A DNA stretch of 64,000 bases. Source: an uncultured bacterium (GTDB taxonomy: Bacteria > Babelota > Babeliae > Babelales > Babelaceae). The notes under the pieces are model-generated. The model was not told the origin of the DNA. It saw nothing but the letters and a program-made list of their open reading frames with translations, and made no database searches. Positions 8,853-39,889 of the stretch are shown one piece after another; position 1 is the stretch's first letter, and each line of letters starts with the position of its first letter. Position numbers and translations under genes: made by a program. The stretch lies in NCBI GenBank assembly GCA_963819815.1, contig CAWFXL010000001.1:32001-96000 (forward strand). Direction: 5' to 3'.

Positions 8853-10301
8853 ATGAGATTGCAAATGAGAAGTGGCCGAGCGGTCACTACGACACTCGCC
8901 ATAGGGGCCGTCCTCGGTCTCTCGGCGTGCGATACCCTCAAGGACAACCTGCTCGAGGCGATCAACCCCTCGATCATCGATCCGTCCTCGGTGCAGTCGG
9001 CCGCGGGCGCAACGGCGGTGCGCAACGGCGCGCTGTCGCGGCTCCGCACCGCAACCGCTGACGGCGAGAGCTCCTGGCTGTTTGGCGGCCTTCTGGTGGA
9101 CGAATGGGCGACCAGCTCGACGTTCGTGCAGAACGACGAGACCGACCAGCGCCAGATCCAGCTCAACAACTCGACCGTGAACAACACGCTGCGCGCACTT
9201 TACCGTGTGCGTACGTCGGCGACCCAAGCGATCGGCTTGCTCAACCAGTACAAGCCGTTGCCGTCGTCGGACATCGCCGAGATGTACTTCGCTCGCGGAT
9301 TCGCCGAGATGCAGTTGGCTTCGGACTTCTGCAACGGCATTCCGCTCAGCGACGGTGCCAGCGAGACGGCTACGCTTGGCAAGCCGCTGCCGGTCAAGGA
9401 CGTGTTCACGGTGGCGAGCGCGTCGTTCGACACCGCGATGACCCTGAGCAGTGGGACCGACGCGGCCAGCGTTACGATCAACCGTGCGGCGCGAATCGGT
9501 AAGGCGCGTGCGTTGCTCGGAATGGGGCTGAGCAACGCGGCGGCCGCCGCCGCGCTGGTCACGGCGATTCCGACGACCTTCCGCTACGACGTCACGGCGT
9601 CGCTGACGGGTGGCACAAACACGCTGTGGGATCAGCCGACCAGCCAGAATCGCTACACCGTTGGCGACAGCATTCAGGGCAACGGACGCAGCATTCTGGT
9701 GAAAAACGCAATCCCGTTCTTCTCGGCGAATGACCGTCGCGTTCCGGCGCACTACAAGATCGGATCGAACGGAAAGGACACCGTGAAGTCGCAGGATGGC
9801 GGCACGTTCGTCATCCAGGTCGACAGCCTGTGGGGCCCGTCGACGGCCGTTGCCATCACCGCCGGTCTCGACGCGCGCCTCATTGAAGCAGAAGCAGCAC
9901 TTCAGGCGAGCAACCCGGCTGGAATGATGACGATTCTGAACGCGCTTCGCGCGGCGCCACAGCAGCTTACCGCGTCGAGCCCAACCTCGACCGGAACGCA
10001 TCCGGGGTGGACGACGCCGGCGTTGCCGGCGCTCACCGACCCGGGCACGACGGACACTCGCGTCAACCTGCTGTTCCGTGAGAAGGCGTTCTGGACGTTT
10101 GGCCGGGGATTCCGGCTGGGCGACCTCCGCCGGCTCATTCGCGACTACGGTCGCGCGGCCGACGGTTCGAACGCCGGTGGCTACCCGATCGGCACGCACT
10201 ACAAGGGTGGCGTCTTCGCTGGTGATCTCCAGCTGCCGGTCACGACCGACGAGCAAAATGGCAATCCGAACTTCAGCGCCTGTCTCGATCGGAAGGCGTA
10301 G
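8853..10301 (+). CDS. SusD/RagB-like outer-membrane lipoprotein
   Basis: Lipobox LSAC, directly after susC; ARLIEAEA, LNALRA, REKAFWTFGRGFRLGDLRR and C-terminal P...EQNGNPN typical of SusD C-termini. Confidence 0.85.
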   Translation: MRLQMRSGRAVTTTLAIGAVLGLSACDTLKDNLLEAINPSIIDPSSVQSAAGATAVRNGALSRLRTATADGESSWLFGGLLVDEWATSSTFVQNDETDQRQIQLNNSTVNNTLRALYRVRTSATQAIGLLNQYKPLPSSDIAEMYFARGFAEMQLASDFCNGIPLSDGASETATLGKPLPVKDVFTVASASFDTAMTLSSGTDAASVTINRAARIGKARALLGMGLSNAAAAAALVTAIPTTFRYDVTASLTGGTNTLWDQPTSQNRYTVGDSIQGNGRSILVKNAIPFFSANDRRVPAHYKIGSNGKDTVKSQDGGTFVIQVDSLWGPSTAVAITAGLDARLIEAEAALQASNPAGMMTILNALRAAPQQLTASSPTSTGTHPGWTTPALPALTDPGTTDTRVNLLFREKAFWTFGRGFRLGDLRRLIRDYGRAADGSNAGGYPIGTHYKGGVFAGDLQLPVTTDEQNGNPNFSACLDRKA

Positions 10302-10343
10302 GATTGGGGGCACTCGTTGGGCTTCGGCCTGACGAGGGACGGA

Positions 10344-10382
10344 GAAAGGGGAGGCGGGCTTCCGCCTCCCCTTTTCTTTTTC
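10344..10382 (+). terminator. Rho-independent terminator after susD
   Basis: GC-rich stem aaaggggaggcgg / ccgcctcccctttt followed by a U tract. Confidence 0.8.
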
Positions 10383-10389
10383 CTAACCT

Positions 10390-10525
10390 GACGGCCGATC
10401 CCGCTCACCGGGGAAGTCGACGGGTGAAGTGTCTAGAGGGAAATCGCCATGATGACGGTAGGGTGCTTGCCGTGAGGCAAGGCGAACCCGGCAGGCATCT
10501 TGACGGAACGGGGGATCGGTTAGTC
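10390..10525 (+). ncRNA. Candidate structured ncRNA (long irregular closing stem plus GNRA hairpin); family unassigned
   Basis: 5' gacggccgatccc pairs with 3' gggatcggttagtc; gacgggt pairs with acccggc; internal cttgcc-GTGA-ggcaag; G-U pairs favour the + strand. Confidence 0.3.
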
Positions 10526-10623
10526 CTTCTGTGGTATTGGTAATGGTGTGGTGGTGGGCGGCACCCGGGAGTTCGACGCGTTGGGGCTTGCGCCGTTCTC
10601 GGCGAAATTCGGCGGAGTTTGGT

Positions 10624-10640
10624 GGGGCACGTCCCTTGCG
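10624..10640 (+). promoter_or_regulatory. Sigma-54 (-24/-12) promoter candidate
   Basis: ggGGCACGtcccTTGCg vs consensus TGGCACGN4TTGCW, about 90 bp upstream of ATG 10728. Confidence 0.55.
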
Positions 10641-10727
10641 CCCCCGGGCGAGGGCAAAACCCCGAGTGACCAACCGCTTGGATCTCGGAAAGACTCTTTG
10701 CTGCGGATCGTTCCGCGGGGACCTTCA

Positions 10728-13700
10728 ATGACCCGACTTCGCATGCGCTGGGCAGCGGCCATCGTGCCGCTCGCGGCGCTTTTTGCGTCCACTCCAGCCC
10801 AGGCCCAGGAGTACTTCGGCCGGAACAAGGTCCAGTATGAGACCTTTGCCTGGAAAGTCCTGAAGTCGGATCACTTCGACAACTTCTTCTATCCGCCGGA
10901 GTCGCTGATCGTGCACGATGCGGCGCGCATGGCGGAACGCTGGTACTCGCGGCACTCGGACACCTTCCGGCACGCGTTCGACCGCAAGTCGCTGGTGTTC
11001 TACGCCGACCACCCGGACTTCGAGCAGACCAACGTCATCGGTGAGCAGCTCGAGGAAGGCACGGGCGGCGTGACCGAGTCGAACCGGACGCGCGTGATCA
11101 TGCCGTTCACCGGCAGCTACGCGGACAACGAACACGTGCTCGGCCACGAGCTCGTACACGTTTTCCAATACAACATCGCTGAGGGCACGCCTGGCGGCGG
11201 ACTGATGCGCCTCGACGCGCTCCCGCTCTGGCTCATCGAAGGTATGGCCGAGTACTTCTCGCTCGGCCGCGAGGATCCGCTGACGGCAATGTGGATGCGC
11301 GACGCCGTGATGCGGAACAAGTTCCCGACGATCAAGCAGCTGACGATGGACCCGCGCTTCTTCCCGTACCGCTACGGCCAAGCGCTGTGGGCGTACGTCG
11401 GCGGACGCTGGGGCGATCGCGCGATCGTCGACGTGTATCGCTCGGCGCTGCGACTCGGGTGGGATGCCGCGCTCGTGCGCGTGCTCGGCGAGAACAGTGA
11501 TTCGCTGTCCAAGGATTGGGCCGCCGCGAATAACGCGATGTACCTGCCGCAGGTCGCCGGCCGCAGCATCCGGACAGCATCGGTACCAGGCTCGTTGGTC
11601 TGACGCGCAGCGGCGACTACAACCTCGCGCCGACGCTCAGCCCCGACGGCAAGTTGTTCGCGTTCTTCTCCAGCACGAAGAATCTGTTCGGCATCGATCT
11701 ATTCGTCGGCGACGCGACGACCGGCAAGATCATCAAGAAGCTCGGTGGCCCTTCGAGTGATCCGCACTTCGACGCCATCAGCTTCATCAATTCCGCAGGC
11801 GATTGGTCGCCGGACGGAAGTGAGTTCGCGTTCGTCGTGTACGCCGAAGGCTCCAACGAAATCGCGATCCTCGACACCAGGACGACGAACGTCGAACGCC
11901 GCATCAAGCTTCCCGGCATCGGCGCCGTGAACAGCGTGTCGTGGTCGCCGGATGGGCACACCCTCGCCTTCTCCGGCCAGGCCGGCGGTATCAGCGATCT
12001 CTACCTGCTCGATCTCAAGGCCGAGACGATTCGTCAGCTCACGAACGACCGCTACGCGGACATTCAGCCGACGTGGTCGCCCGACGGCAAGACGATCGCC
12101 TTCTCGACCGATCGCGGCGCCCAGACGGATTTCAATACAGCTCAAGTTCTCGCCGCTCCAGCTGGCGACGTACGATGTCGCGACCGGTCGCATCAGCGTA
12201 TTCTCGCCGTTCGCGCACGGCAAGCACATCAACCCGCAGTTCTCGCCGGACGGCAAGGAGATCTTCTTCGTCTCGGATCAGGACGGCTTCCCAGACATCT
12301 ATCGGCTGAATTTGGCCAGCAGTCAGGTCTTCCGAGTCACGACCGTTGCGACCGGTGTCAGCGGCATCACGGCGATGTCACCGTCGCTCTCGGTGTCACG
12401 TCAAACGGGAAAGCATGTTGTTCTCGACGTTCTACGATCAGGGCAACGAAATTCGTGGATTCGAGGCGTCGCAGACCGTGGGTACGGCGGTGGCCGCGCC
12501 ATCGGTTGCGTGGGAAGGCGCTCAACTACCGCCACCGCAGGTGACGCGCAGCCTGGTCTCGAGCTATCTCGCGGATCCCTTCGCCGGACTTCCGAGCGGC
12601 AACGAGTTCGTCGTCGAGCCGTACCAGTCTTCGTTCTCGCTCGACGCCATCGGTCAGCCGAGCTTGGGCGTCGTTGCCGGCGGACCGTTCGGCACCGGCG
12701 TGGCGGGCGGCGTATCGATGATCTTCGGCGATCAGCTGAGCGACCGTCAGATCTTCGCGGCCATCCAAGCGAATGGAACCGTGAAGGACATCGGCGGCGC
12801 TCTGCAGTACTACAACATGAAGAATCGCTGGAACTACGGCGGCGGCGTCGAACACATCCCGTATCTCACGGGGCAAGTCTACCTGAAAGACACGACGTTG
12901 AGCTCGCAGGGCGGCCCGGTCGCCGCGTACTCGATCAATCAGATCCTGCAGCGCGTCTACATCGATCAGGCGGCCGCGTTCACTCAGTATCCGTTCTCGA
13001 TGACGAAGCGACTCGAGATTACGGCCAACATCACGCACTACGGCTTCGACACCGAGTTGTTCAAGACGACGTTCGTCGGCAACACGATCGTCGATCAGAG
13101 CGATGAAAAGCTGACATCGGTCTACCAGCCCGTCTGGTTCGCCGAGCCCTCCATCGCGCTCGTCGGCGACAACTCGTTCTCGGCGTTCACCTCTCCGGTC
13201 CAGGGTGAGCGTTATCGCATTCAGCTCACGCCGACGTTCGGATCGGTCCAGTACCAAACGGCGCTGGTCGACTACCGGCGCTACATCTTCATGCGTCCGT
13301 TCACGGCGGCCTTCCGCGGTGTATCGCTCGGCCGTTACGGAAGCGGCGCCGAGGATCCGACCACGACATGGCCGATCTACCTGGGCGACGAGACGATGAT
13401 CCGCGGGTACGGCTACAGTTCGTTCTCGAACGACGAGTGTCAGGTCAATGGCACCACGCGTGGGCAGCGCGGCTGCACAGGTCGGGTGCCCGACGTTCCA
13501 GCGTCTGTTCGGCAGCAAGGCGGCCGTGTTCAACGCTGAACTCAGAATTCCGCTCTTCGGAACAGAGGGATTTGGTCTGATCAACTTCCCGTTCCTCCCG
13601 ACGGAAGTCTCGCCGTTCTTCGACGGCGGCGTTTCATACACGAACAACCAGGCGCCGGATTTTCGGCTGACGCGGTCGGCAAACGACATTCCGGTCAAGT

Positions 13701-16906: not shown

Positions 16907-18205
16907 TTAACGCACAGCTCGCAGCGTCGCTGGAGTCAGGCCCAGGGCGCCGCTGTCACGGCGCGCTCTGTTCTTCCGGTTCCCCTTGTCGACGTACATC
17001 GCCCGGTCGGCTCGCTCGATCGCCGTGGACAGCTGCTCGGAACTGGCGTAATCGGCGGTACCCAGGCTGACCTGGAGACCAATGGCGTCGCCCGACGCGG
17101 CGCGCGCCGGCTGCGCCTCCTCGATGGCCTGTCGAAGGCGTCCAAGCACGTTTGACGCGTGCGCTGAGGGCAGCACGACGAGGAATTCGTCGCCTCCCCA
17201 GCGATACAGCTTGTCGTAAGGACGAAGCGCACCGCGCAGCACCTCAGCGCACCGGCGAATGAGCTGATCGCCGACCGCATGACCATGCTGGTCGTTGGCT
17301 CGCTTCAGATTGTCGAGGTCGGCGATGACGACCGTGCCGAACGTGGCGCGAACCATCTCGAGTCCGACGCCTTCGGCGAACGCGCGCCGGTTGAGCGTGT
17401 CGGTGAGCGGGTCGTAGAGCGCGGCTCGCCGTAGACGGTCGTGCGTCAGCCGAAGCTCGGACTGGGCGTCGTCGACTTCTCGCTTCGCGTCCTCCATGAG
17501 CAGGAGGATCATCGCGTAGCCGAGCAGCACGTTGAGCGACAGATCGAGATACGAATTGTACGCAGTGATCCAGAGCGAGGCGTCGATGAAGGGGGTCGGC
17601 GCGCCAAGCAGGACGATGACGAACACGCCTCCGTAGATGCACCAGAGGACCGCGAGGAGTCCGAACGCTGCGCCGGTCGCCGTGCTGCCAACAGTTCGGC
17701 GCGGTCGCGGCAGCGACAGCATCGTCCACGCGCAGTACCCGAAGACAGGGAAGGCGACGGCGCTCTGCCAGACCACCATCTCGTTCAGGCCGCGGTGCAC
17801 GAGCATCGACGACACGGTGCCGAACAGCGCGGCGAGGAGCCAGAGATGCCGCGTGGCGCGAACGCCCGCCGTCGTTCCGACGAGATAGATCAGCGTGCCG
17901 CGGACGAAGAGCACGAACCCGACGACCTTGCTCGCCTGATAGACGAGGTAGAGGTAGCGAGTTGTAAGGTCGCCCTCCTCGAGTTGCACCCCGGTGATGC
18001 CGGGCACGAGGATGTAGCGAAGCACGAGCGCGGTGATCGCGATCGCGAACGCCACCCACGCCGCTGCCCACGCGGTGAAGTACGCTCGCCGCAAGACGAA
18101 CCGGCGAAGCGTCAGGAACAGGGCAATCAGCATCAGGGCGCCGCCCAACTGCACGACTACGCCCACGAACGCGAGGACGGGAAAGGTTTGCTGGTGAGGC
18201 TGCAT
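16907..18205 (-). CDS. Membrane-bound diguanylate cyclase (about 7 TM + GGDEF)
   Basis: Multiple TM helices, coiled coil, DPLTDTLNRR, DLDNLKRANDQHGHAVGD, RWGGDEF, ADRAMY. Confidence 0.9.
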   Translation of the reverse strand: MQPHQQTFPVLAFVGVVVQLGGALMLIALFLTLRRFVLRRAYFTAWAAAWVAFAIAITALVLRYILVPGITGVQLEEGDLTTRYLYLVYQASKVVGFVLFVRGTLIYLVGTTAGVRATRHLWLLAALFGTVSSMLVHRGLNEMVVWQSAVAFPVFGYCAWTMLSLPRPRRTVGSTATGAAFGLLAVLWCIYGGVFVIVLLGAPTPFIDASLWITAYNSYLDLSLNVLLGYAMILLLMEDAKREVDDAQSELRLTHDRLRRAALYDPLTDTLNRRAFAEGVGLEMVRATFGTVVIADLDNLKRANDQHGHAVGDQLIRRCAEVLRGALRPYDKLYRWGGDEFLVVLPSAHASNVLGRLRQAIEEAQPARAASGDAIGLQVSLGTADYASSEQLSTAIERADRAMYVDKGNRKNRARRDSGALGLTPATLRAVR

Positions 18206-19550: not shown

Positions 19551-20132
19551 ATGCCGCTGACGATCGCTGAGCTCGAGACGCCAATTCCCGTCGTCGACCT
19601 GGACCGCCTCGCTCGTAATCTCGACCGGGCAGCCGAGTACGCAAAGGCGCACGGCCTGGGGCTCCGGCCACATATCAAAACCCACAAGTCACCCCGCATC
19701 GCGGGTGAGCAGCTGACCCGCGGCGCCGTGGGCGTAACGTGCGCGACCCCGTACGAGGCCGAGGTCATGAGCGAGGTGTGCAGCGACATTCTCGTTGCCT
19801 ACCCACCGGTCGGCCCGAAGCGCGCCGCGCGACTGGCCACGCTCGCGAGGAAGGTGCGACTCACCGTCGCGCTCGATTCGATTCAGGCCGTCGACGATCT
19901 GGCGCGCGCGGCGACTGAGGCCGGAAGCAAGATCGGTGTGTGCGTCGAGCTCGATCTAGGAATGCACCGCGTTGGGCTCCCGGTCGTCGACGACGCCATC
20001 GCGCTCGCGCGCGCGGTGCGTGAACGGCCGTCGCTCGAGTTTGCCGGCATCGCGTTCTATCCGGGGCACGTGCGTGAGCCAGTCGATCAGCAAACACTCA
20101 AGCTCGACCAACTCAAGACGACGATCGGCGCG
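19551..20132 (+). CDS. D-TA/DSD1-family PLP-dependent enzyme (alanine racemase fold), truncated at the junction
   Basis: LETPIPVVDLDRLARN, LRPHIKTHKS (PLP Lys), VELDLGMHRVG, FYPGH; only about 194 codons before AT-rich sequence begins. Confidence 0.85.
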
Positions 20133-20140
20133 GTTTTAAC
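20125..20140. other. Junction between GC-rich and AT-rich genomes
   Basis: ...acgatcggcg|cggttttaacccttc...; both flanking genes are truncated and composition switches abruptly. Confidence 0.9.
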
Positions 20141-22275
20141 CCTTCTTGATACTCATAGACTGCATTATTAATCATTTCACCAATATCATCACCACTGAAT
20201 CCTTCGGTTGCCGAGAGAATCTTATCGTAGAAGTCAGGTGATAGGGCATGTGGGGTACGAGAGACGACCTCAATACTATTTTGATGAAGATAATAGTTAA
20301 TAATTTTCTTCCTTTTTGCATAGTCTGGAAGAGGAATTTCAATAGTCTTACAGCGACGCATCACTGCGGGATCAATGTTTTCAGGATAGTTAGTCGTACA
20401 TATAACAAATATACGAGGATCATGTCGATACTGGTCAAGTGTGGTGATAAACGATTTAAGTGCTCTGTTATCCTCTTGGGTGCTACCATGAGGTTGTAAG
20501 CGTGAACTTGTTCCATCGATTTCATCGATGAGAATGATACAATTACCCAGTTTTAATGCTTCTGCAAAGAGGGCATCTAATTTCGCTTTACCGGAGCCTT
20601 GGTAGGCGTCCCTAAAGTCACCACCACCTGCATAGACAATTTTTCTACCAGCAGCACGTGCCATGACTTGAGCGATCGTACTCTTACCAGTACCAGGAGG
20701 ACCATAGAGGAGGAGACAATTTTTAAGTTTAGTGCCAGCTGATCGGGGAGCAGCTTCTCGTTTCATCTGCTTAATACAGATGGCTACCTCATTAGGAATC
20801 TTGCCACCAAAGAGATCCTCCAAAGAAGGAATTTCGTCGTCTCTGAGGTTCACTAATGGCGCATCATAATTCACACTATTTTTTTTAGCAGCGGCAGTGG
20901 TATCGGTACTCGCTTCCTCTTTTTCTCCCAATAAGTCTTTAATGAAATCATCTTTCTTTTTTTCAGGAGCAAGTTTTTTCGCGATTTGGAGCGCCTCTTG
21001 TACCGTATCTACAAGCGCAGTTATGGCTTCTTCATATTGGCGATCTTTATTGTGCGGATCAGTTACGGTAAACGTTACCTTATCATGCATCTTGGTAATG
21101 ACACATGAGGTCCATTGCTTTTCAAAGCTTATGAGGAAAAGCGCCTGAAATTTCTGAGGTTTTTTTTCAAGCTCAGTGCGGAGCCATGACAGTTCAAGAT
21201 TATTGGAGATACGTTCTTCAAGAGGGTGCTGACTCGTATACTCTAAGAAATGAATGTTTTCAAGGGCAACCGCTGAAAACTGATCAGGTGGATAGTGTGG
21301 AGGAATTGAATTTTTCGTGATCGCTTCTGCGAGCTCTTTTATTTCTGTGGCCGAGAGCCAGCTGCCATCGGGAAAGGATGAAGGTGAAGGACCGTAAGTT
21401 AAAGAGTAGACCCTAGTTCCGTTAACGTGCAGTTCATTGTGATTTTTTCCTTGTTTGAGCTCGCCCTCTAGAGAAGGTACAGTTGCAAGGTAGGATTCAA
21501 AGAGCTGACGTCCGAACGCAACTCCTTTTTTATTGTTTGTTTCGGCTGACTCTTGTTCGAGTGCTCTATAAAGGTCTTCAGTAGTTATGCGAAAGGTACC
21601 CCCTTTTTGAGAGTGCGCATGAGCTGCTCGCTGTGCAGCCCCAGGTATAAGACGTGCGAGATAATCTATTTCAGTGCGTTGAAGTGGTGTTCTGTCATCA
21701 TTAATAACGACTACAGCCTTTTGAGTTTGCAGAATATAAAAGTCCATCGAACTAATTTCTTTATACGGAATCGCATGAGTGCCCAATAGATGCAATAAGA
21801 ACTGATCTTCAAGATACCCTTTTAAGGTGCTTTCAAATCGATTTTGAATAATAGTTGAGCGCCATGCTGACTTTTCATGCGCAAAGAGCTGTTCAGCTAA
21901 CGAGCGATCATGCATTTTGCGTAGAAAGGCATTTTTTTCAGGTTCTTGTGCATAAGGAAGCACACTAGAGATAAGGCCATTATGGAGCGCGACATATCCT
22001 GAGCTTGCCTTAGTTTCTTCATAGCCAGAATCTTCACCACCAAAGATTGCGCTCAAATATTGAGCATAGGCGACATCTTTAATCTTTGCATGAACTGGTT
22101 CTGTAATTTCCAGAAGAGATTGTGCGGGTACTAGCTCAGGTAGGTCATTTTCATCTTCATCAAGACCCTGGTCAGATAATGCTGAGGTATGATCTAGTGT
22201 CGGATCTGGGTAAAGCGAGCCAGTAATACCTATAACTAAGAGTAAGCTAAGTAGAGATTTCTTAGGGATCATCAT
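20131..22275 (-). CDS. Signal peptide + uncharacterised (pseudo-protease-like) domain + classical AAA ATPase; C-terminus cut at the junction
   Basis: GPPGTGKS, ILIDEID, pore loop YQG, TTN, DPAVMRR, TEGFSGDDI; collinear with 26553-28874 up to EGLKP. Confidence 0.85.
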
Positions 22276-22496
22276 GGGTCACCTCATGAAATTGGAGTAG
22301 GATATTTTTTATTATCAGTACTACATTCCTGTCTCTAATCATATATGATTTTATGATTTTCGGAAGTTTATTTTTTATGGATTTAAAATCAAAGTTTGAT
22401 TCATATGACTAGAAATGATTTGGATCGGAGCTAGACAAGAAGGGATGGCGTTAGCTATTTTAATTGAATCGTCATAAGGAATCCCATCTCCTCGTT

Positions 22497-24206
22497 TCAG
22501 GAGCAGGTTTTTTGATCGGCTTGCAGCGCCTCTTGTACTAAATCTACAAGCTTAGTTATGACTTCTTCATTTTGGCGATCTTTATTGAGCGGGTCAGTGA
22601 CGGTAAACGTTACCGTATCCTGCATCTTGGTGATAACACACGAGGTCCATTCCTCTCCGAAGTTTTTTATAAGTAGGAGCGCCTGAAACTTCAGAGGTTT
22701 TTTTTCAAGCTCGGTTTGGAGCCAGGATAGGGTAAGATTATTACGGAATTCTTCAAGAAAGGTCTTACTTGGATATTCTAAGCAACGAATGTTTTTAGGC
22801 AGAACCGCTGTTACTGTAGTTTTCTCCGGATATCCTAAGAATTGAATTTGTCCAAGAGTAGCCGCTATATCTACGACTGAGAGCCAGCTACCATCTTGAA
22901 AGGGTGTAGGCGAAGGACCACGGGTTAAAGAATGGACCATGGCTGAGAGCCAGCTACCATCTTGAGAGGTTGCAGGTGAAGGACCATAGGTTAAAGAATG
23001 AACCATAACTCCATTAACATACAGTTCGTTATGATTTTTTCCTTGTTTGAGCTTCCCCTCTAGGGTGGGTATCTTTGCAAGATAGGTTCCATAGAGTCTA
23101 AGTACAAACATCTCGGCCTCTTTATCGACCGGGTTGTCCGAGTTCCAAGCGGCTGGATTTTCTTTTAAAATTGCTTCATAAAGGAGTGCAAAAAAGACAT
23201 CTGGAGGAGTGATTATAAATTCTTTTTTAAAGTACTCATGGGCTGCTCGTTGTGCACACCCTGGTATAAGTTTTGTGATACACTCAATTTGAGCCCGTTG
23301 TAGAGGTGTTGCATCATCATTAATGACGACAGCACCCTTTTTTGTGCCCAGAATAAAAGGTTGCAATGCGGAATCATGAGGACCAAATTCTTCAATATGG
23401 GTTCCCGAAAGATGCAATAAGAAGTGTTCTTGAAGATACTCAGCTAAGATTCTTTCAAGTCGACTCTGCATGACAATTGAGCGCCATGAAGAATTCTCAG
23501 AAACAAAGAGCGGTGCTGCTGTTAATTGACTATGCATTGAACTAAGCAACCAACATAGCTCAGGTCCCTCAGCATAAGAAAGCATACTAGATATGATACC
23601 ATTATACAGTGCAACGTATCCTGAGTTTGCCTTAGTTTCTTCATAGCCAGAACCACCAAAAATGGCACTTACATATTGGGAATAGGCGACATCTTTAATC
23701 TTTACATGAACGGGTTCTGTGATCGCCTGTGCGGGTACTAGCTCAGGAAGATCATTTTCATCAAGAGTTTGGTCCGATAATGCTGGATTGCTTTGGATGA
23801 CTTCTTGTGTCAGCGGCAGAGGGGACAGAATTGAACCATTATTAGTTGAAATTTGATTACCTTTGGTAACTGATAACGCTGCTGCCCCTGGCAGAGTGGT
23901 CAACGCCCCCGTATTTTGCAGCGCAAGAAATGCCAGTGCTATTTTCAATCGATGTTTTCCGGCAATTTGTGCCCCTGACTTGAAGAGCTCAAAAACTACT
24001 TGCATTGCTTTGGGGCCATAGGAAAGAGCATCTAGAAGTATATCTTCGTCAAGCAGCTCTCTGTTTATAGGCTGTGAATCGGGACCGGACTCACTTTCAA
24101 GGCTGCGAGGAAGCTCAATAGAAGCTGCTGCTAGTGATGTGACAGGAGTCGCCATCACAGTAAACAGCATCCCTATCGCATACCATTCTTTCAACCGCAT
24201 TGACAT
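22497..24206 (-). CDS. Secreted paralog of the AAA family, N-terminal domain only
   Basis: Shares DLPELVPAQ, SGYVALYNG, LKQGKNHNEL, DGSWLS, WTSCVITK...VTDP.NKDR with 20131-22275; no Walker motifs. Confidence 0.8.
   Translation of the reverse strand: MSMRLKEWYAIGMLFTVMATPVTSLAAASIELPRSLESESGPDSQPINRELLDEDILLDALSYGPKAMQVVFELFKSGAQIAGKHRLKIALAFLALQNTGALTTLPGAAALSVTKGNQISTNNGSILSPLPLTQEVIQSNPALSDQTLDENDLPELVPAQAITEPVHVKIKDVAYSQYVSAIFGGSGYEETKANSGYVALYNGIISSMLSYAEGPELCWLLSSMHSQLTAAPLFVSENSSWRSIVMQSRLERILAEYLQEHFLLHLSGTHIEEFGPHDSALQPFILGTKKGAVVINDDATPLQRAQIECITKLIPGCAQRAAHEYFKKEFIITPPDVFFALLYEAILKENPAAWNSDNPVDKEAEMFVLRLYGTYLAKIPTLEGKLKQGKNHNELYVNGVMVHSLTYGPSPATSQDGSWLSAMVHSLTRGPSPTPFQDGSWLSVVDIAATLGQIQFLGYPEKTTVTAVLPKNIRCLEYPSKTFLEEFRNNLTLSWLQTELEKKPLKFQALLLIKNFGEEWTSCVITKMQDTVTFTVTDPLNKDRQNEEVITKLVDLVQEALQADQKTCS
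22877..23006 (-). repeat. In-frame 66-bp tandem duplication (22 aa)
   Basis: MVHSLTYGPSPATSQDGSWLSA / MVHSLTRGPSPTPFQDGSWLSV. Confidence 0.9.
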
Positions 24207-24261
24207 TTTTGCTCCTCGATTTTCTACCAGCTATATTCTAGCATATTTATTTTCCAGAAAT

Positions 24262-24400
24262 CATCAAGCGCTAACCTGGTTTACGAGTAATTCCAACAAA
24301 TCCCCCGTTTAAGCGAATTCGCAGATTGCACTTCGTCATAACCAGCTCCAAAGTCGTTGGCAATCCGTGGTGTATATGCTGCGTATGGATATAGTGGAAT
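24262..24400 (-). pseudogene. Degenerate fragment of the adjacent methyltransferase
   Basis: YTPRIANDFGAGYDEVQSANSLKRG vs HIPPGIAIDFGAGYAGVESAYLLKRG in 24577-25251; boundaries approximate. Confidence 0.7.
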
Positions 24401-24576
24401 TTGTTGAATGCTGGTTATTTCTTGTACTACGGGCGTACGTGAGGTGGTTGTCCACCGAAAGTCCATAGATTCATGAATCCGAACACAGCATCAGAGATAA
24501 AGAGAAGGCTTATGTAGATCCAGAAGAGTGAGCAGGCTCCCAAAGCCTAAAGTGATAACCTTGCATCGGTAATTCC

Positions 24577-25251
24577 TTATTTTTTTCTTGCAATAACAGA
24601 ATAATAAGGAGGGCCTTCTTGCGGCTCTTCATTTGTCTTTGGTAGCAATGCATTAAGTTCATCAAAATACATAATCTCAAAATCATCAAAAAGCTTTATG
24701 AGCTCGTTTTTTGGCAGTGGAGGAAGATCTCCTACAAAGAAGCTACCGGGCTTGATATGTGCCACTATCTGTTTCCACACCTTTGGAAAATCTTTCACCC
24801 CTTTACTTGATAAAGAGTAGAATGCTATGAAAAGATCGACTTGAGGGATGTAGGTCCAATTGAGATCTTCAAACCGGGATGCTATGGTTCTTAACTGTGA
24901 ACGATAAGGATATATAGCCTTCTGGGAAGCAAGCACTTGAAGCATTTCTTTCACGTGGTCGATAGCAATAACCTGGTATCCGCGCTTAAGCAAATACGCA
25001 GACTCCACTCCCGCATAGCCCGCTCCAAAGTCGATCGCAATTCCTGGCGGTATATGCTTCATTTGAATGTACTCAAAAGCTTTTATTAAAAGTGGGTTTG
25101 CTGGCCTCGTAGGGGCTTCGCGGGGAATAAGGCTGTAAATTAAGTTGCTTTTCGCACGCTTTCTTGCGACTTGAAGAGTTAAAGCAACAGTAACTATGCT
25201 GACTAAGCTGATTCCGATGATAAAATGAAGTTCGCTAAACCTATATTTCAC
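24577..25251 (-). CDS. Class I SAM-dependent methyltransferase (TehB-like) with N-terminal TM helix
   Basis: GGAG RBS + GTG at 25251; motif I AIDFGAGYAG, YQVIAID, VDLF, IKPGSFFVG. Confidence 0.8.
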   Translation of the reverse strand: MKYRFSELHFIIGISLVSIVTVALTLQVARKRAKSNLIYSLIPREAPTRPANPLLIKAFEYIQMKHIPPGIAIDFGAGYAGVESAYLLKRGYQVIAIDHVKEMLQVLASQKAIYPYRSQLRTIASRFEDLNWTYIPQVDLFIAFYSLSSKGVKDFPKVWKQIVAHIKPGSFFVGDLPPLPKNELIKLFDDFEIMYFDELNALLPKTNEEPQEGPPYYSVIARKK

Positions 25252-25347
25252 AGGCTCTCTCCGTTGTTTGTATTGCACAAGTATAGTACAAGATACGATG
25301 TAGAGGCCATAGTTTCTCCTCATGATGCACTTGGGCCGGACCTTGAC

Positions 25348-25405
25348 TTATCGGCATACTTAAATGGATGATTCTGCCGATAACATGCCGATAACATGCC
25401 AATAA
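25348..25405. promoter_or_regulatory. Operator-like array upstream of fic: one inverted and three direct TGCCRATAA boxes
   Basis: ttatcggca (25348); tgccgataa (25375, 25386) and tgccaataa (25397) at 11-bp period; TTGACT at 25343. Confidence 0.6.
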
Positions 25406-26505
25406 AAAACATGGTAAGATTTAAGCCTTTCTATACGATTACATCAAAGGTTGCTCAGGGTCTTATGCGGATTGAAGCAGTTAAAGAGAAGGTACTGTAT
25501 GTACCATTAACTCCTTTTGTTTTAGCTTCGTTGCGTCAATCCGCGAAGCTCTATTCAACTCACTATTCTACGATGATTGAAGGCAATGTCCTTACCCAGG
25601 ATCAAGTAAAAGAAGTAGTTGAACACAAAGGACATTTTCCTGGACGTGAACGCGACGAGCAAGAGGTGAAAGGCTACTATGCGGCGTTAACCCTCGTTGA
25701 ACAATGGGCAGCTCGTGGTACGTCTCTTACCGAAAAAATGATACAAACACTTCATGCTCTTGTGATGTCTGGAGGGCAAGCAAAAAGTAAACCTAGCCCC
25801 TATAGAGACGGTCAAAATGTAATCCGTGATGGAAGAACTGGAGCTATCGTCTACTTGCCTCCTGAGGCTCAAGATGTTTCGAATCTCATGAAGTTATTGG
25901 TTCATTGGATAGATAAAGCAAGTGACGTTCCATGCCCGATTGTTGCTGGTATTGCTCATTATCAATTTGCTACCATTCACCCTTATTATGATGGCAACGG
26001 AAGAACAGCAAGGTTACTCACTACGTTTCTACTTCATCATGGTGGGTTTGGTCTCAAGGGACTTTTTTCACTTGAGGAATATTATGCACGTAATTTAGGT
26101 GCTTACTATGAGGCGATAAGCATTGGTGATTCCCATAACTACTCTATGGGACGTGCAGAAGCAGATATTACGCCGTGGATTGAATACTTCATAGAGGGGA
26201 TGGCGGTCTCGTATGAAACTATATTGAAGCATATGGCTCACTTAGCGGCAAAAGGAACATCTGATCACCGTGATCTGATCAGAGACCTTGACCCAATGCA
26301 GCGTAAAGCGCTTGAGCTGTTTCAAAATTTTAAGATTGTCACGAGCAAGCAGGTTGGAGAGCTCTTTGGATTTAAGCCGCGTACCAGCTCACAGCTCTGT
26401 GCAACATGGGTTGAAAACGGTTTTCTTGAGATTGTAGACCCTTCAAACCGAGGGCGGAAATATAAGCTCTCAAAGCACTATGAAGCCTTGCTTACAAGTT
26501 TATAG
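25396..26505 (+). CDS. Fic family protein (class II-like) with C-terminal wHTH
   Basis: Fic motif HPYYDGNGRTAR; N-terminal autoinhibitory STMIEGN; C-terminal HTH-like segment ending GRKYKL. Confidence 0.92.
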   Translation: MPIKNMVRFKPFYTITSKVAQGLMRIEAVKEKVLYVPLTPFVLASLRQSAKLYSTHYSTMIEGNVLTQDQVKEVVEHKGHFPGRERDEQEVKGYYAALTLVEQWAARGTSLTEKMIQTLHALVMSGGQAKSKPSPYRDGQNVIRDGRTGAIVYLPPEAQDVSNLMKLLVHWIDKASDVPCPIVAGIAHYQFATIHPYYDGNGRTARLLTTFLLHHGGFGLKGLFSLEEYYARNLGAYYEAISIGDSHNYSMGRAEADITPWIEYFIEGMAVSYETILKHMAHLAAKGTSDHRDLIRDLDPMQRKALELFQNFKIVTSKQVGELFGFKPRTSSQLCATWVENGFLEIVDPSNRGRKYKLSKHYEALLTSL

Positions 26506-26552
26506 GTGTGGAGCCTACGAGATCAAGTAGGTACCAAAGATATTATTTTAAA

Positions 26553-28874
26553 CTATACGTTGATACCCATAGAATTGAAGAGCGCTTTCCAACCACCTCG
26601 GACGAGTATTTGCCAGAAGCTTTCCTGAACGAGGTTCGTCGCGTAATCATAGTTCCGATTGACAAGTCTGGTACCGAATGGTTCTTTTGCATACTTATCT
26701 GAAGGGTCATTTTTACGCTCATTCTTTTTAAGGTCATTGCGAAGTTTAACTTGTCGCATATAGGCTGAATACACATGCTTATCAAGATCACTTTCTCCCA
26801 TCACCATAAAGAGAGGGATCAAGGGAAGGCGTGCAAATTCACCAAGATTTGAGATGATAGACTTATTAAACAGGTCTATTCCTTGCGTTCTAAAATCAAT
26901 GTTTGGGTGAGGATTTTCGGGCTTTAAGCCTTCTTGAAACTCATAGATTGCATTGTTAATCATCTCACCGATTTCATCACCACTGAATCCTTCAGTTGCC
27001 GAAATAAGCTTATCATAGAAGTCTGGTGAGAGCGCATGTGGAGTGCGCGAAATGATCTCAGTAGCATTTTGCTTAAGATAATAGTTGATAATATTCTTCC
27101 GCTTTGCATAATCTGGAAGAGGAACCTCAATCGGTATGAAACGACGGGTAACCGCAGGATCCATGTTCTCAATATAGTTAGTGGTACAGATCACAAATAT
27201 ATCAGGATCATAACGGTACTGATCAAGACTTGTAATAAATGATTTAAGTGCCCTGTTATCTTCTTGGGTGCTTCCATGGGATTTTATACGCGAACTTGTA
27301 CCATCGATTTCATCGATGAGAACCACACAGTTGCCCAGTCTTTTTGCTTCAGCAAAGATGGCATCTAATTTTGCTTTGCCCGACCCTTGGTAGGAATCTC
27401 TAAAGTCACCGCCACCTGCATAGACAATATTTCTGCCAGCAGCTCGAGCCATGAGTTGAGCAATCGTACTCTTACCCGTCCCGGGAGGGCCATAGAGGAG
27501 GAGACAGTTTTTAAGTGCTATTCCAGAAGGCCGAGGAGGAGCCGCTTGCCGTTTCATTTTCTTTATGCAGATGGTTACTGCATTAGGAATCTTTTCACCA
27601 AAGAAATCATTTAAAGAAGGTATCTCATGGTCCTTGAGATGGGCAAGAGGTGGATCATAGTTCACCTTGTTAGCAGCTGGTTTTTCTTCCTGCTGTACTC
27701 TTCCGAGATTTCTTAATGGATTTTCGTTCTTTATTGGAGGAGCTTTGCGTGGTGTAAGCGCATCCTGAATTGTCTGAGCAAGAACGACCAAGCCCTTTTC
27801 TGTATGACGATCTTTATTCTGAGGGTCAGTCACCATAAAGGTTATCACTTGGCGAAACTTTGTGATGACGCATGAGATCCATTCTTGGTCAAAACGTATA
27901 AGAAAGAGAGCTTGGAACTCGTGTGGATTTTTGACCAGCTGGGTTCGTAGCCACGTAAGCTCGGCATTATTCATTTGATGCTCATCTGGAGTGAGCGTCT
28001 CACTAAATTCTAAGAAGTGGATGTCCTTAGGATGAGTGCCCTCAGGTGAATTTTTCAGTTTATGTTCAGCCAGGTCCTTAAGATCTAAGGCCGTGAGCCA
28101 ACTACCATCGGGGGAGTCGGAGGTATCTTCGCTCGGTCCATAGGTTTCTTTGAGAACCTGCTTTTTGTCTTCATAAATCTCATGTTGATTGTTGCTGCAC
28201 CTTAGTTCTCCTGATATTGGCTTCAGTTCACTAAAATATTTCATGCAGATGCTTTCATCAAAAGCATTTCTTGGAGCTTTTGCCTGTGCCTCTTGTTCAA
28301 GTGCTGTGTAAAACTCTTGAGGGGTAAGCGTAAAAGTTCCCGCTTCGTACCCATGAGCTTTTACAACGCGATCTGTGGCTCCTGGCAAAAGATCTGATAC
28401 ATACATTATTTCAACAAGGGAATCACCATCAAGAGCTTTCTGCATGATGCCGACTTGCAATTGAAAAAGATGCAGATATTTAAGGTACAAATAATTAATA
28501 AAGAATTCCTCTAGACGATTCTTAATAACATGCGATCGCCAGTCTGCAACACGTGCGGTACATGCCGATCGGTCCTGTAGCTTTTCAAATAGGGCGGTTT
28601 TTTGTTCCCCATGTGCCTTAGGTACACTCTGCATAATAAGACCACAATAAAGGGCTTCGTACCCAGAACTCGCTGATCCTTGGGGTAGAGAGAGCTCACC
28701 AGAATGAGTTGAGCGGTACTGGTTATAGGTACTTTGTAAGACTTTTGCTGAATACAGAGGATCAACCTGTGCGCTGGAATTACCAAGCTCTGGCTCTTGT
28801 GGACCTGCATAGAACTTTCCTGCAAGACATATGGTGAGACATATTATGATACAGAAATATCTTCTAAAAAACAT
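26553..28874 (-). CDS. Signal peptide + uncharacterised (pseudo-protease-like) domain + classical AAA ATPase (full length)
   Basis: Hydrophobic N-terminus; GPPGTGKS, VLIDEID, YQG, TTN, DPAVTRR, TEGFSGDEI. Confidence 0.88.
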   Translation of the reverse strand: MFFRRYFCIIICLTICLAGKFYAGPQEPELGNSSAQVDPLYSAKVLQSTYNQYRSTHSGELSLPQGSASSGYEALYCGLIMQSVPKAHGEQKTALFEKLQDRSACTARVADWRSHVIKNRLEEFFINYLYLKYLHLFQLQVGIMQKALDGDSLVEIMYVSDLLPGATDRVVKAHGYEAGTFTLTPQEFYTALEQEAQAKAPRNAFDESICMKYFSELKPISGELRCSNNQHEIYEDKKQVLKETYGPSEDTSDSPDGSWLTALDLKDLAEHKLKNSPEGTHPKDIHFLEFSETLTPDEHQMNNAELTWLRTQLVKNPHEFQALFLIRFDQEWISCVITKFRQVITFMVTDPQNKDRHTEKGLVVLAQTIQDALTPRKAPPIKNENPLRNLGRVQQEEKPAANKVNYDPPLAHLKDHEIPSLNDFFGEKIPNAVTICIKKMKRQAAPPRPSGIALKNCLLLYGPPGTGKSTIAQLMARAAGRNIVYAGGGDFRDSYQGSGKAKLDAIFAEAKRLGNCVVLIDEIDGTSSRIKSHGSTQEDNRALKSFITSLDQYRYDPDIFVICTTNYIENMDPAVTRRFIPIEVPLPDYAKRKNIINYYLKQNATEIISRTPHALSPDFYDKLISATEGFSGDEIGEMINNAIYEFQEGLKPENPHPNIDFRTQGIDLFNKSIISNLGEFARLPLIPLFMVMGESDLDKHVYSAYMRQVKLRNDLKKNERKNDPSDKYAKEPFGTRLVNRNYDYATNLVQESFWQILVRGGWKALFNSMGINV

Positions 28875-38146: not shown

Positions 38147-39889
38147 TCATAATGAGCCTGTATGGCCTAAGAACCAATCTGCTACCCCGAAAACAAAGGA
38201 CGTGGTTAGCTCTGCATTAGAGCATGTGCCTTGCACTATTGACACACTTCGATCCCAACATTGTTGGGGGTTTATTTTTCTTGCAGTATATTTCTGAAGC
38301 ACTCCCCAGATTTCTTCAATATGATCTTGATCGAGTGATGCTATATTTTGTAAAATATGAGCAGTTTCGATCTTACAGATCACGATCTTTCCATTTGAAA
38401 GGCCGAGAACTACTGTATCTCCGTCAATTGTGCCTATCACAGAAATTCCTGCTCCATGGTGTGTGCATCCTAGTTGTGTACCCGAGGTATCCAAGATACT
38501 GAGCGTGCCATCTAAAGAGCCTATGACTATCTTATTATTGAAAACATGGAGGCTCGAAATCGAACTTTTTCGTTTACTAGCAAGCAAAGTGGCGGATGCA
38601 TCCCAGAAGCAGAGCTCCCCCCTATGAGCAGCAGAAACAATGATACCGTCGTTTGTCGTTACAATTGAATTAATAGAGCAACCTTCAGGTGGTGCATTAC
38701 CTTTACTTCGTTTATTGTCCAAGGTATTCCATATAGTCACTCCATGCGCAGTTGTAACAATCTTTGAATATTCTATTATGTTATAATCAACGGCAGCTGT
38801 TACTACCTTTCCGTCATTCATAATACCCATTGCACTAATATGCTTACTAGAAGTATCCTCGGCTAGCAGTTGGCCTTGTATATCCCAGATGTGAATTGTG
38901 CCATCGAGAGTGTATGCAACTATCCTATTATCACCGGTACATTGTACGCAAATGATTGCCTGCACACGTCCACCCTGACATATAATACCATCAGTGGCTC
39001 CTATCTTCCAAATGCGCACGAGCCCATCATAAAATCCCATAACTATCTTATTATCTGGACCGGCACAAATGGAAGAGAGCCCAGGCGTTGCCTTGGAAAA
39101 GATATTGTGCCCTTGCGTATCCCAGATATCTAATGAAGCAGTGCAAGCGACGACAATGTTATTGTCTGATGTTACACACATAGATTCGATATCTGTGCTA
39201 TGAAGGCATTCAGCAATAAGCATACCTTCCATATTCCAAATTCGAATGGTTCGATTATCAGAAGAACGTGTGACTATCTTATTGTCGTGAGTAACGCATA
39301 CTTGACTGACATCTTTATGGGCTTGCCACTGAGCTACCGTACGAATCGAAAGAGTCTCTTTGTTCAATAACGTAGCAAGTTTAGAGACTTGATCATTAAC
39401 GAGAGAAGTACTCAATTGGCTTGGAAGCGCTTTAATGTTCTGTGTAGAAATTTTATCGGGTGTAAGCTTTCTTACCATCTCATGAGCTATCTTAGCAAGA
39501 ATGGGAATATCTAAGTAATCTACCGCCTGTAAGAACTCAACGAGGGTGTCTCCGTCAAGGTCTTGTAATCCTCTTTTGATTTCCTCGATTATCGCAGAAT
39601 CATCTTGCTTTGTATGTATGTACACATTGCCTAATTGCTGAGCAATCAACTCACCGATCTTTTTTGATACCCTCGGCAAATCTAACGTATCAAGATCCAT
39701 CTCCACAAGCGTTCTACATCCCTGTATAAGCAGTGCATGATGGCGTGGGATTTTTATGGGTTCTTGAGATTCACCCAGCAATAGAATTATTTCTTCTTGC
39801 GTAGTAGATGCAGCATTTTGTGCAACAGTAGTCATGGCATGTATATGAAGATTCCATGCGAGTAGTCCAAAAATAAGAACTGTTTTCAT
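38147..39889 (-). CDS. Secreted SKP1/BTB-like + WD40-repeat protein
   Basis: Signal peptide; LVEFLQAVDYLDIPIL resembles Skp1 LFELILAANYLDI; WD repeats (TIRIWN, LDIWD, VRIWK, IHIWD, LCFWD). Confidence 0.8.
   Translation of the reverse strand: MKTVLIFGLLAWNLHIHAMTTVAQNAASTTQEEIILLLGESQEPIKIPRHHALLIQGCRTLVEMDLDTLDLPRVSKKIGELIAQQLGNVYIHTKQDDSAIIEEIKRGLQDLDGDTLVEFLQAVDYLDIPILAKIAHEMVRKLTPDKISTQNIKALPSQLSTSLVNDQVSKLATLLNKETLSIRTVAQWQAHKDVSQVCVTHDNKIVTRSSDNRTIRIWNMEGMLIAECLHSTDIESMCVTSDNNIVVACTASLDIWDTQGHNIFSKATPGLSSICAGPDNKIVMGFYDGLVRIWKIGATDGIICQGGRVQAIICVQCTGDNRIVAYTLDGTIHIWDIQGQLLAEDTSSKHISAMGIMNDGKVVTAAVDYNIIEYSKIVTTAHGVTIWNTLDNKRSKGNAPPEGCSINSIVTTNDGIIVSAAHRGELCFWDASATLLASKRKSSISSLHVFNNKIVIGSLDGTLSILDTSGTQLGCTHHGAGISVIGTIDGDTVVLGLSNGKIVICKIETAHILQNIASLDQDHIEEIWGVLQKYTARKINPQQCWDRSVSIVQGTCSNAELTTSFVFGVADWFLGHTGSL

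Follow-up and report, generated by a model that had tools for sequence, protein, structure and literature searches.

A 64,000-nucleotide stretch of DNA from an uncultured bacterium of the Babelaceae (GenBank assembly GCA_963819815.1, contig CAWFXL010000001.1, positions 32,001 to 96,000; its full length is referred to here as the window) carries three minus-strand paralogs, P1, P2, and P3, within positions 20131-28874. We favor, at a probability of roughly 0.55, the explanation that they are members of a Babela-type Dependentiae family in which a catalytically dead, circularly permuted Ulp1-like domain acts as an exported reader of ubiquitin-like modifiers (UBLs) coupled to an AAA unfoldase. 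The anatomy, homology, catalytic-residue state, and selection described below form the established part of this explanation; beyond it, we infer export, assembly into a ring, the ligand, and a link between binding and unfolding. The architecture itself is known from Babela; what is new here is a wider spread of the family, a Ser-for-Cys lineage with repeated loss of the His, and purifying selection on the dead domain.

Catalytic-site residues, family membership, and selection

The original prediction, made from the sequence alone, described three paralogs with shared sequence blocks and signal-like N termini, whose N-terminal domain (N-domain) is a pseudo-protease with Cys replaced by Ser and His by Gln or Glu. 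All of the quoted blocks proved invariant in a three-way alignment (P3 numbering: Q52, Y53, A68, S70, G71, Y72, A74, L75, and G78; D256, G257, S258, W259, L260, F320, Q321, A322, L323, L325, and I326; W332, S334, C335, V336, I337, T338, and K339; T345, F346, V348, T349, D350, P351, N353, K354, D355, and R356), and signal-like N termini are present in all three proteins. The window proteins carry Ser at the Cys site, Gln or Glu at the His site, and a retained Asp (P1 S92/Q387/D406, P2 S195/E519/D538, and P3 S70/E331/D350). Relatives retaining the CGY, HW, and DS motifs, whose existence had been proposed as a check of the prediction, were found: distant members have Cys where P3 has S70, and most members have His in the column of E331 (P3) and Q387 (P1). 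A pattern-based census over 58 family rows, four of them set by hand from the alignment, read Cys/His/Asp or Asn at exactly those columns in 19 rows, Ser/His/Asp in 13, and Ser/non-His/Asp in 18, with 8 rows unreadable (fragments or pattern misses). None of the 58 rows bears Cys without His. Because no Cys row lacks His and because Cys and His occupy the same columns in relatives, a lost nucleophile and a lost base can be deduced, supporting the view that the N-domain is a thiol-protease-like domain from which both have disappeared in the window proteins.

The family consensus reads Q ... [C/S]-G-Y-H-A-L-K-N ... G-x-W-L ... H-W-x-S-C-[VI]-x-x-K ... T-D-S-x-N-x-D-R. In SENPs, the gatekeeper Trp and the Trp of the WLND motif clamp the Gly-Gly tail. 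In the present family, W332, directly after the His site (W388 in P1 and W520 in P2), is conserved as Trp in all 30 aligned rows, and W259 of the G-x-W-L motif (W306 in P1 and W419 in P2) is Trp in 24 of 30, each also in rows where the His is gone. An aromatic residue following the His is treated as the "gatekeeper" of deubiquitinases (DUBs) in the relevant part of PMC7391069. The column of P3 C335 (27870-27872), four residues after the His site, is Cys in 28 of 30 aligned rows, and SseL, a clan CE enzyme of solved structure, shows the H-W-x-x-C spacing too; the Cys of H-W-x-S-C is probably structural. An 872-amino acid relative from an uncultured bacterium with a 1.73-Mb chromosome (L002) keeps the His, the Asp, and a second upstream Gln, and only the change of Cys to Ser separates it from Cys-type members; judged by these residues, it is a candidate serine-nucleophile form. 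Five stand-alone members with Cys/His/Asp(Asn), P0038, P0044, P0052, P0057, and P0058, are devoid of the ATPase and end in a hydrophobic, transmembrane-like tail, which suggests that they are membrane-anchored active proteases of the same family.

Proteins joining a signal peptide, a circularly permuted Ulp1-like peptidase, and an AAA ATPase were described from Babela massiliensis by Pagnier et al. (2015, Biol Direct 10:13; PMC4378268). In its passages on this family, that report, which is a sequence analysis only, calls the domain a derived C48-family Ulp1 peptidase homolog of circularly permuted form that is "inactivated in several members," and considers the fusion and the permuted form as then "unique to B. 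massiliensis." Its HHpred results place PF02902 positions 2-135 on the GHW...HW...DS half (probability 89) and positions 148-182 on the N-terminal Q..CGYHAL block (probability 75), and the Ulp1-family rows of its alignment show WLND and HW at the blocks of W259 and W332. Two proteins matched by the profile of the window N-domains, P0033 (E 2.0e-8, profile positions 50-397) and P0050 (E 1.7e-4, positions 61-398), agree at their N termini with Babela_gene_562 and Babela_gene_16 as given in Additional file 13 of the same report, and the window proteins therefore belong to the Babela family. They share with it the signal-like N terminus, the placement of the Q...[C/S]GYHAL block before G-x-W-L ... 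HW ... DS, the C-terminal AAA module, the presence of several paralogs per genome with some members inactivated, and the Dependentiae lineage of amoeba-parasite-type bacteria. In contrast to the described family, inactivation involves both the Cys and the His in each window protein, one paralog is devoid of the ATPase, and all three stand on a Ser-for-Cys branch, in contrast to the Babela hits on the Cys-rich branch (Shimodaira-Hasegawa-like approximate likelihood ratio test [SH-aLRT] 91). A literature search, which largely did not cover subscription journals, found no later work on the family after 2015.

A profile of the three window N-domains returned 56 proteins with E≤1e-3, of which 27 reached E≤1e-10, among 1.84 billion representatives; the matches are clusters at 50% identity and include P2 itself. 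By comparison, matches from a word-index search were confined to P3 itself and the P1 ortholog, and it was the exhaustive profile search that revealed the family. One match, P0055, carries phage-tail domains and was dropped as false. PF00004 was found in 36 of 55 relatives scanned. The family thus extends beyond Babela to 56 such clusters and two further genomes. A quick tree was calculated from 46 of the 58 rows, the other 12 being omitted for a domain segment shorter than 230 residues or an unreadable triad. It is split (SH-aLRT 91) into a Cys-rich side (18 C/H/D, 2 S/H/D, and 1 S/x/D) and a Ser side (16 S/x/D and 9 S/H/D). P1, P2, and P3 fall within a 10-row group (SH-aLRT 91) in which every row is without His, with P1 and P2 as nearest paralogs (support 100) and P3 more distant. 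Well-supported branches require at least three losses of the His, all on the Ser side, and a Ser-for-Cys lineage with repeated His loss is observed. The tree was midpoint-rooted for drawing only; a change in the direction from Cys to Ser is therefore suggested by the Ulp1 relatives.

Constraint on the window proteins was estimated as the ratio of nonsynonymous to synonymous substitution rates (dN/dS) against a related Dependentiae contig (L001). For P1, dN/dS was 0.15 in the N-domain, 0.12 in the linker, and 0.007 in the AAA module (0.09 overall, at 96% amino acid identity), and the dead domain is accordingly maintained by purifying selection. P2 evolves faster (dN/dS 0.50, at 84% amino acid identity), reflecting either relaxed constraint or diversifying pressure.

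Fold of the N-domain, AAA module, and signal-like N termini

Peptidase profiles point to clan CE as the source of the N-domain. PF02902 (Ulp1, C48) was listed for 5 of 55 relatives and reached its gathering score of 20.7 in three of them (P0049 28.6, P0011 21.4, and P0023 21.0), and ElaD/SseL-like_C was listed for 2 of 55. On P0049, the PF02902 match starts at profile position 1, on a GDWLD motif, and the G-x-W-L block is therefore taken to mark where the Ulp1 catalytic domain begins. Among solved structures, SseL gave the N-domain profile its best sequence match (E 0.0086, on the HW strand), and hhalign aligned the block of strand, HW strand, D strand, and helix with Escherichia coli ElaD (E 0.0033, probability 9.6%). 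The Cys-site block lies ~260 residues upstream of the His site, reversing the clan CE order of His, Asp, (Gln), and Cys. This pattern of motifs is what would be expected of a circularly permuted Ulp1/C48-like (clan CE) domain with the Cys helix moved to the N terminus. No Pfam family was found on the N-domain of P1, P2, or P3 (scan of the window proteins at E≤0.1), and NCBIfam likewise gave no match for it. The ESM Atlas returned sub-threshold leads only, namely giant-virus hypothetical proteins (0.83-0.81), ElaD (0.79), and RickCE (0.78).

An AlphaFold (AF2) model of the P3 N-domain (mean predicted local distance difference test [pLDDT] 88.9, predicted template modeling score [pTM] 0.86) begins with a hairpin bearing Q52 and a helix of which S70 is the first residue. 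Approximately 170 residues of long helices and a small β-meander follow, then a helix immediately after W259/L260, a strand, a helix, three consecutive strands, and a last helix; E331 and W332 open the second of the three strands, and D350 ends the third. From the G-x-W-L helix onward, the model appears to reproduce the order of Ulp1 elements drawn in the relevant figure of PMC4378268, with the hairpin and nucleophile helix placed N-terminal to it. The same succession of a helix after WL(N)D, a strand, a helix, and three strands with HW and D-S is found in Ulp1/SENP, SseL, ElaD, ChlaDUB, and CidB, and the two conserved Trp residues and the weak to moderate profile matches are further likenesses to Ulp1/SENP and clan CE. 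Unlike clan CE proteases, the window proteins have the nucleophile helix ahead of the His/Asp sheet with the ~170 residues of helices and β-meander inserted between them, are without the catalytic Cys and His, and, in P1 and P3, are fused to an ATPase. Permutation that moves a Cys helix has been described (PMC12501173) for the EmcB-family circularly permuted OTU deubiquitinases of Legionellales, effectors of intracellular bacteria, and PMC7396840 offers further precedent in permuted bacterial OTUs. In contrast to the window proteins, EmcB-type enzymes have an OTU fold (clan CA), carry the helix at the C terminus, are active, are without an ATPase, and are Dot/Icm substrates. In a Foldseek search of the P3 N-domain model against BFVD, no match reached E≤0.001; the best was an uncharacterized 908-amino acid Hokovirus protein (A0A1V0SFN0; E 3.1e-3, probability 0.94, template modeling scores 0.29/0.13). 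This match and the giant-virus leads in the Atlas hint at relatives in giant viruses of protists.

The claim that two of the paralogs carry an intact classical AAA module was borne out. PF00004 matched one module each in P1 (E 6e-29) and P3 (E 3e-28), with a weak AAA_lid_3 match beside it, and gave none in P2. Alignment of P3 with the archaeal VAT ATPase (5vc7) covered all nucleotide-binding and hydrolysis motifs, comprising Walker A (GPPGTGKS), Walker B (LIDEID), the sensor-1 TTN, GFSGDE, and a pore loop of YQG as compared to YYG/WVG in VAT. Both arginines of the second region of homology are kept (TR-RF versus RRPGRF), and the usual Pro-Gly between them is deleted. By these motifs, the AAA module of P1 and P3 is intact. 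The best solved relatives of the P3 module are VAT, Cdc48, and p97 (E 1e-38 to 1e-33), with NSF and AFG2 also among them, and modules of the P3/P1 type score well short of all cut-offs for named AAA families in NCBIfam, including CDC48 (67-75 bits versus a cut-off of 803) and FtsH (TIGR01241, E 2e-23 to 3e-27). The pairing of a UBL reader or trimmer with a classical AAA unfoldase is reminiscent, in concept only, of Cdc48/p97 with Ufd1-Npl4, Otu1/YOD1, or ataxin-3, and of Rpn11-Rpt. Unlike Cdc48, p97, and VAT, the window proteins have one AAA module instead of two, no double-psi-barrel N domain, and the YQG pore loop, and their putative reader is fused in cis, catalytically dead, bacterial, and equipped with a putative secretion signal.

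The N termini of P1, P2, and P3 consist of two Lys or Arg residues followed by an uncharged hydrophobic run of 14 to 23 residues, and a crude rule based on hydropathy scored a signal-like start in 49 of the 58 rows. In the genome account of Chromulinavorax destructans, signal peptides are assigned to 44% of coding sequences and a Sec system is reported to be present (PMC6561590), and a type II system is the only secretion system named for Babela in the corresponding section of PMC4378268.

Assembly junction and gene order

The guanine-plus-cytosine (GC) content is 0.61-0.68 from window position 1 to ~20000 and 0.40-0.44 beyond, and the switch in composition is placed at 20130/20131. Contig L001 aligns with the window at 92.7% nucleotide identity, and the alignment ends exactly at window base 20131. 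The window is thus two unrelated pieces, 1-20130 and 20131-64000, joined together, and P1 is therefore truncated by the junction. Its real sequence ends in ...EGLKP, the last five residues and the stop codon of the open reading frame (ORF) deriving from the foreign high-GC piece, and its AAA module runs from approximately residue 488 to the cut. The full-length P1 ortholog has 836 or 837 amino acids (P0002, 836) and the same C-terminal extension as P3, which is itself identical in sequence to the database protein P0001. On the high-GC side, the junction interrupts an alanine-racemase-N-like ORF (19284..), and a GGDEF protein (16907..18205) is among the genes of that part. A search of the N-domain profile against all six-frame ORFs of the window of at least 60 amino acids matched exactly P1, P2, and P3 (Table 1).

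Table 1. Coordinates of the three paralogs, their predicted parts, and the two genes between P2 and P3 in the window
Feature	Positions	Strand	Basis or remark
P1, 715 real codons, 3' end cut by junction	20131..22275	-	ORF reads 20113..22275, 720 aa
P2, 569 aa	22497..24206	-	Signal-like N terminus, ~100-aa extra N-terminal region, dead domain, AAA absent
Methyltransferase-like gene, 248 aa, N-terminal hydrophobic segment	24577..25323	-	Pfam Methyltransf_11 E 5e-6; syntenic in L001
Fic-domain gene, 369 aa	25396..26505	+	Pfam Fic E 1e-17; syntenic in L001
P3, complete, 773 aa	26553..28874	-	ORF; signal-like N terminus, putative dead permuted Ulp1-like domain, AAA, ~115-aa C-terminal extension
P3 signal-like N terminus, residues 1-24	28803..28874	-	Two Arg then 14-residue uncharged hydrophobic run (hydropathy heuristic)
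P3 pseudo-peptidase domain, ~residues 40-375	27750..28757	-	AF2 model, alignment columns
P3 Q52 codon	28719-28721	-	Stored alignment
P3 S70 codon (Cys site)	28665-28667	-	Stored alignment
P3 W259 codon	28098-28100	-	Stored alignment
P3 E331 codon (His site)	27882-27884	-	Stored alignment
P3 W332 codon	27879-27881	-	Stored alignment
P3 D350 codon	27825-27827	-	Stored alignment
P3 classical AAA module and lid, ~residues 425-657	26904..27602	-	Pfam AAA at 458-579, alignment to solved AAA ATPases
P3 C-terminal extension after AAA lid	26556..26903	-	Kept in full-length relatives; no family assigned; no 19-residue window of P3 exceeds a mean hydropathy of 1.4

Gene order in L001 matches that of the window (Fic, methyltransferase, P2, P1), and the P2 ortholog there (L001 2521-4242, 573 amino acids) is likewise without an AAA module. 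In P2, a 22-residue tandem duplication of the G-P-S-P...D-G-S-W-L block (~22878-23009, residues ~400-443) places the G-x-W-L motif twice in the protein, and the duplication is also present in the L001 ortholog. Directly after the P1 ortholog, L001 carries a convergent type II/IV secretion ATPase gene (7353-8579, T2SSE, E 7e-111), the window counterpart of which was lost through the junction. In L002, the 872-amino acid relative (9740-12358) lies a few genes from phosphoenolpyruvate (PEP) synthase and nucleotidyl-transferase genes, which in the window flank P3; the PEP synthase there is syntenic with the window, and a large ankyrin-repeat gene is nearby. Among the housekeeping genes of the low-GC part of the window are genes for WD40, ankyrin-repeat, and TPR proteins (38147-39889, 48955-50244, and 54257-55711). 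The same mix of housekeeping and ankyrin/WD40/TPR genes is described in the gene-content sections for Babela (PMC4378268) and Chromulinavorax (PMC6561590), and membrane proteins adjoining the Babela family genes are mentioned by Pagnier et al. (PMC4378268).

Proposed mechanism and alternatives

As we envisage it, the proteins would leave the bacterium, probably through Sec and the type II system, and would act in the cytoplasm of the protist host. The AAA modules would assemble into a ring, and the dead Ulp-like domain would act as an integral reader, recognizing either the C-terminal tail of SUMO, ubiquitin, or another UBL or the conjugates of these modifiers. The bound protein might then be passed to the pore lined by the YQG loops and be unfolded, or extracted from complexes, without deconjugation; P2, without an ATPase, could function as a stand-alone binder or decoy. 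A bolder version, which we hold only tentatively and consider rather unlikely, is that these proteins are secreted, self-contained "segregases," which would replace Cdc48 and its adaptor by bacterial means, seizing conjugates of host SUMO, ubiquitin, or NEDD8 by the C-terminal tail and passing them to an AAA unfoldase that runs on host ATP in the host cytoplasm, and that the Ser/His/Asp sisters are the first serine-nucleophile members of the Ulp fold.

Several results weigh against a dead permuted Ulp1-like reader. PF02902 had no match on P1, P2, or P3 (E≤0.1), and no peptidase family was found on the 82-85-amino acid Cys-motif segments of 10 members (Pfam, E≤10), so the permutation is argued here from the order of motifs and of secondary-structure elements; the published HHpred link for the N-terminal Cys half, as tabulated in PMC4378268, is itself modest (probability 75). 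When the P3 N-domain model was searched against the PDB with Foldseek, there were zero matches at E≤0.001. Clan CE chains ranked weakly (SseL rank 5, probability 0.30; mpox I7L rank 12, 0.54; CidB rank 41, 0.57; E 0.19-0.56), and the top rows were P450s, noise arising from the long helices. Foldseek aligns in sequence order, and a permuted fold is therefore penalized. P0056, a natural minimal Cys/His/Asp member modeled to remove the helical insert (pLDDT 76), yielded only CorA/ZntB noise. The His and second Gln of Cys-type members are gone, and the pocket may have been remodeled for a different ligand. The dN/dS of P2 could mean decay instead of function.

The nature of the fold and of its chemistry can be considered together. 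A Josephin/papain-type (clan CA) ubiquitin-binding pseudo-protease, mirroring ataxin-3 and p97, had been the original prediction. The order of Gln, Cys site, His-Trp, and Asp is indeed that of clan CA. In Josephin, a long helical hairpin follows the nucleophile helix, as one does in the P3 model. The His-aromatic motif is common to Josephin and clan CE according to the relevant text of PMC7391069. The assignment was nevertheless rejected: PF02099 had no match in five window proteins (E≤0.1), 55 relatives (E≤0.01), or 10 Cys-motif segments (E≤10); no Josephin chain is among the Foldseek matches listed for the P3 N-domain and P0056 models; all peptidase signals are C48, SseL, or ElaD, hence clan CE; G-x-W-L is aligned to WLND, with which the C48 profile opens; and the HHpred results printed in PMC4378268 give Ulp1 for both halves. 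We regard a Josephin-type fold as highly improbable. The domain might instead still be an enzyme, either a serine-type Ulp-like hydrolase with a Ser nucleophile or one performing other chemistry such as acyl transfer, and it is suggestive that the Cys column is filled by Ser, as opposed to Ala or Gly, in 23 of the 30 rows aligned. Ser, His, and Asp occur together in 13 of 58 rows, including the L002 relative with its second Gln, and acetyltransferases employing the same site are found within clan CE, as described in part of PMC7391069. Against this, P1-P3 have Gln or Glu at the His column, hence no general base, and stand in a group entirely without His, the residue having been lost at least three times on the Ser side of the tree; moreover, one row has Asp at the Cys column, and Asp, like Ser, is a good helix N-cap, which would fit a structural role. 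From these residues, the Ser/His/Asp sisters, the L002 protein among them, could plausibly use a Ser nucleophile, which seems unlikely in the window proteins that lack the His, and retained enzymatic activity is on the whole improbable.

Location is a separate matter. The proteins may remain with the bacterium, in the periplasm, at the surface, or on an uncleaved anchor, and form a membrane-associated AAA remodeler running on periplasmic host ATP, the dead domain binding a bacterial or imported protein. The original prediction had placed the ATPase in the host cytoplasm on the grounds that the periplasm lacks ATP. That argument is weak for an energy parasite living on host ATP, as Dependentiae are portrayed in the metabolic part of Deeg 2019 (PMC6561590); host ATP must cross the outer membrane, and ATP in the periplasm is thus plausible. 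The signal peptides of the Babela family are, in the words of Pagnier et al., "somewhat atypical" (PMC4378268), a point that counts against export as well as for retention, the AAA module resembles that of membrane-anchored FtsH (TIGR01241), if far below its cut-off, and hydrophobic tails are seen at the ends of the five stand-alone Cys/His members. On the other hand, the hydrophobic runs are mostly of 12 to 19 uncharged residues with Lys or Arg before and acidic stretches after them, a pattern of signal peptides as opposed to a 20-residue anchor. The relatives Ulp1, SENP, SseL, and ElaD target eukaryotic ubiquitin-like modifiers, which are absent from bacteria, and ankyrin and other eukaryote-type proteins of the phylum bear the same type of signal in the sets presented in PMC6561590 and PMC4378268. 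Retention is accordingly judged unlikely, although less so than either an active enzyme or a Josephin fold, and an exported UBL reader coupled to an AAA unfoldase remains our preferred reading of the three proteins.

What the window adds to knowledge of the family is modest but concrete. The wider spread, the Ser-for-Cys branch, and the selection on both the dead domain and the ATPase are reasons to test the dead forms as well as those that look active. Few bacterial effectors join a UBL reader with an ATP-driven unfoldase of their own. If active in the host, such proteins would represent a new kind of interference with SUMO/ubiquitin signaling, by extraction or unfolding instead of deconjugation, and, if the reading is true, the family would offer a natural case of a protease turned into a substrate-trapping adaptor.

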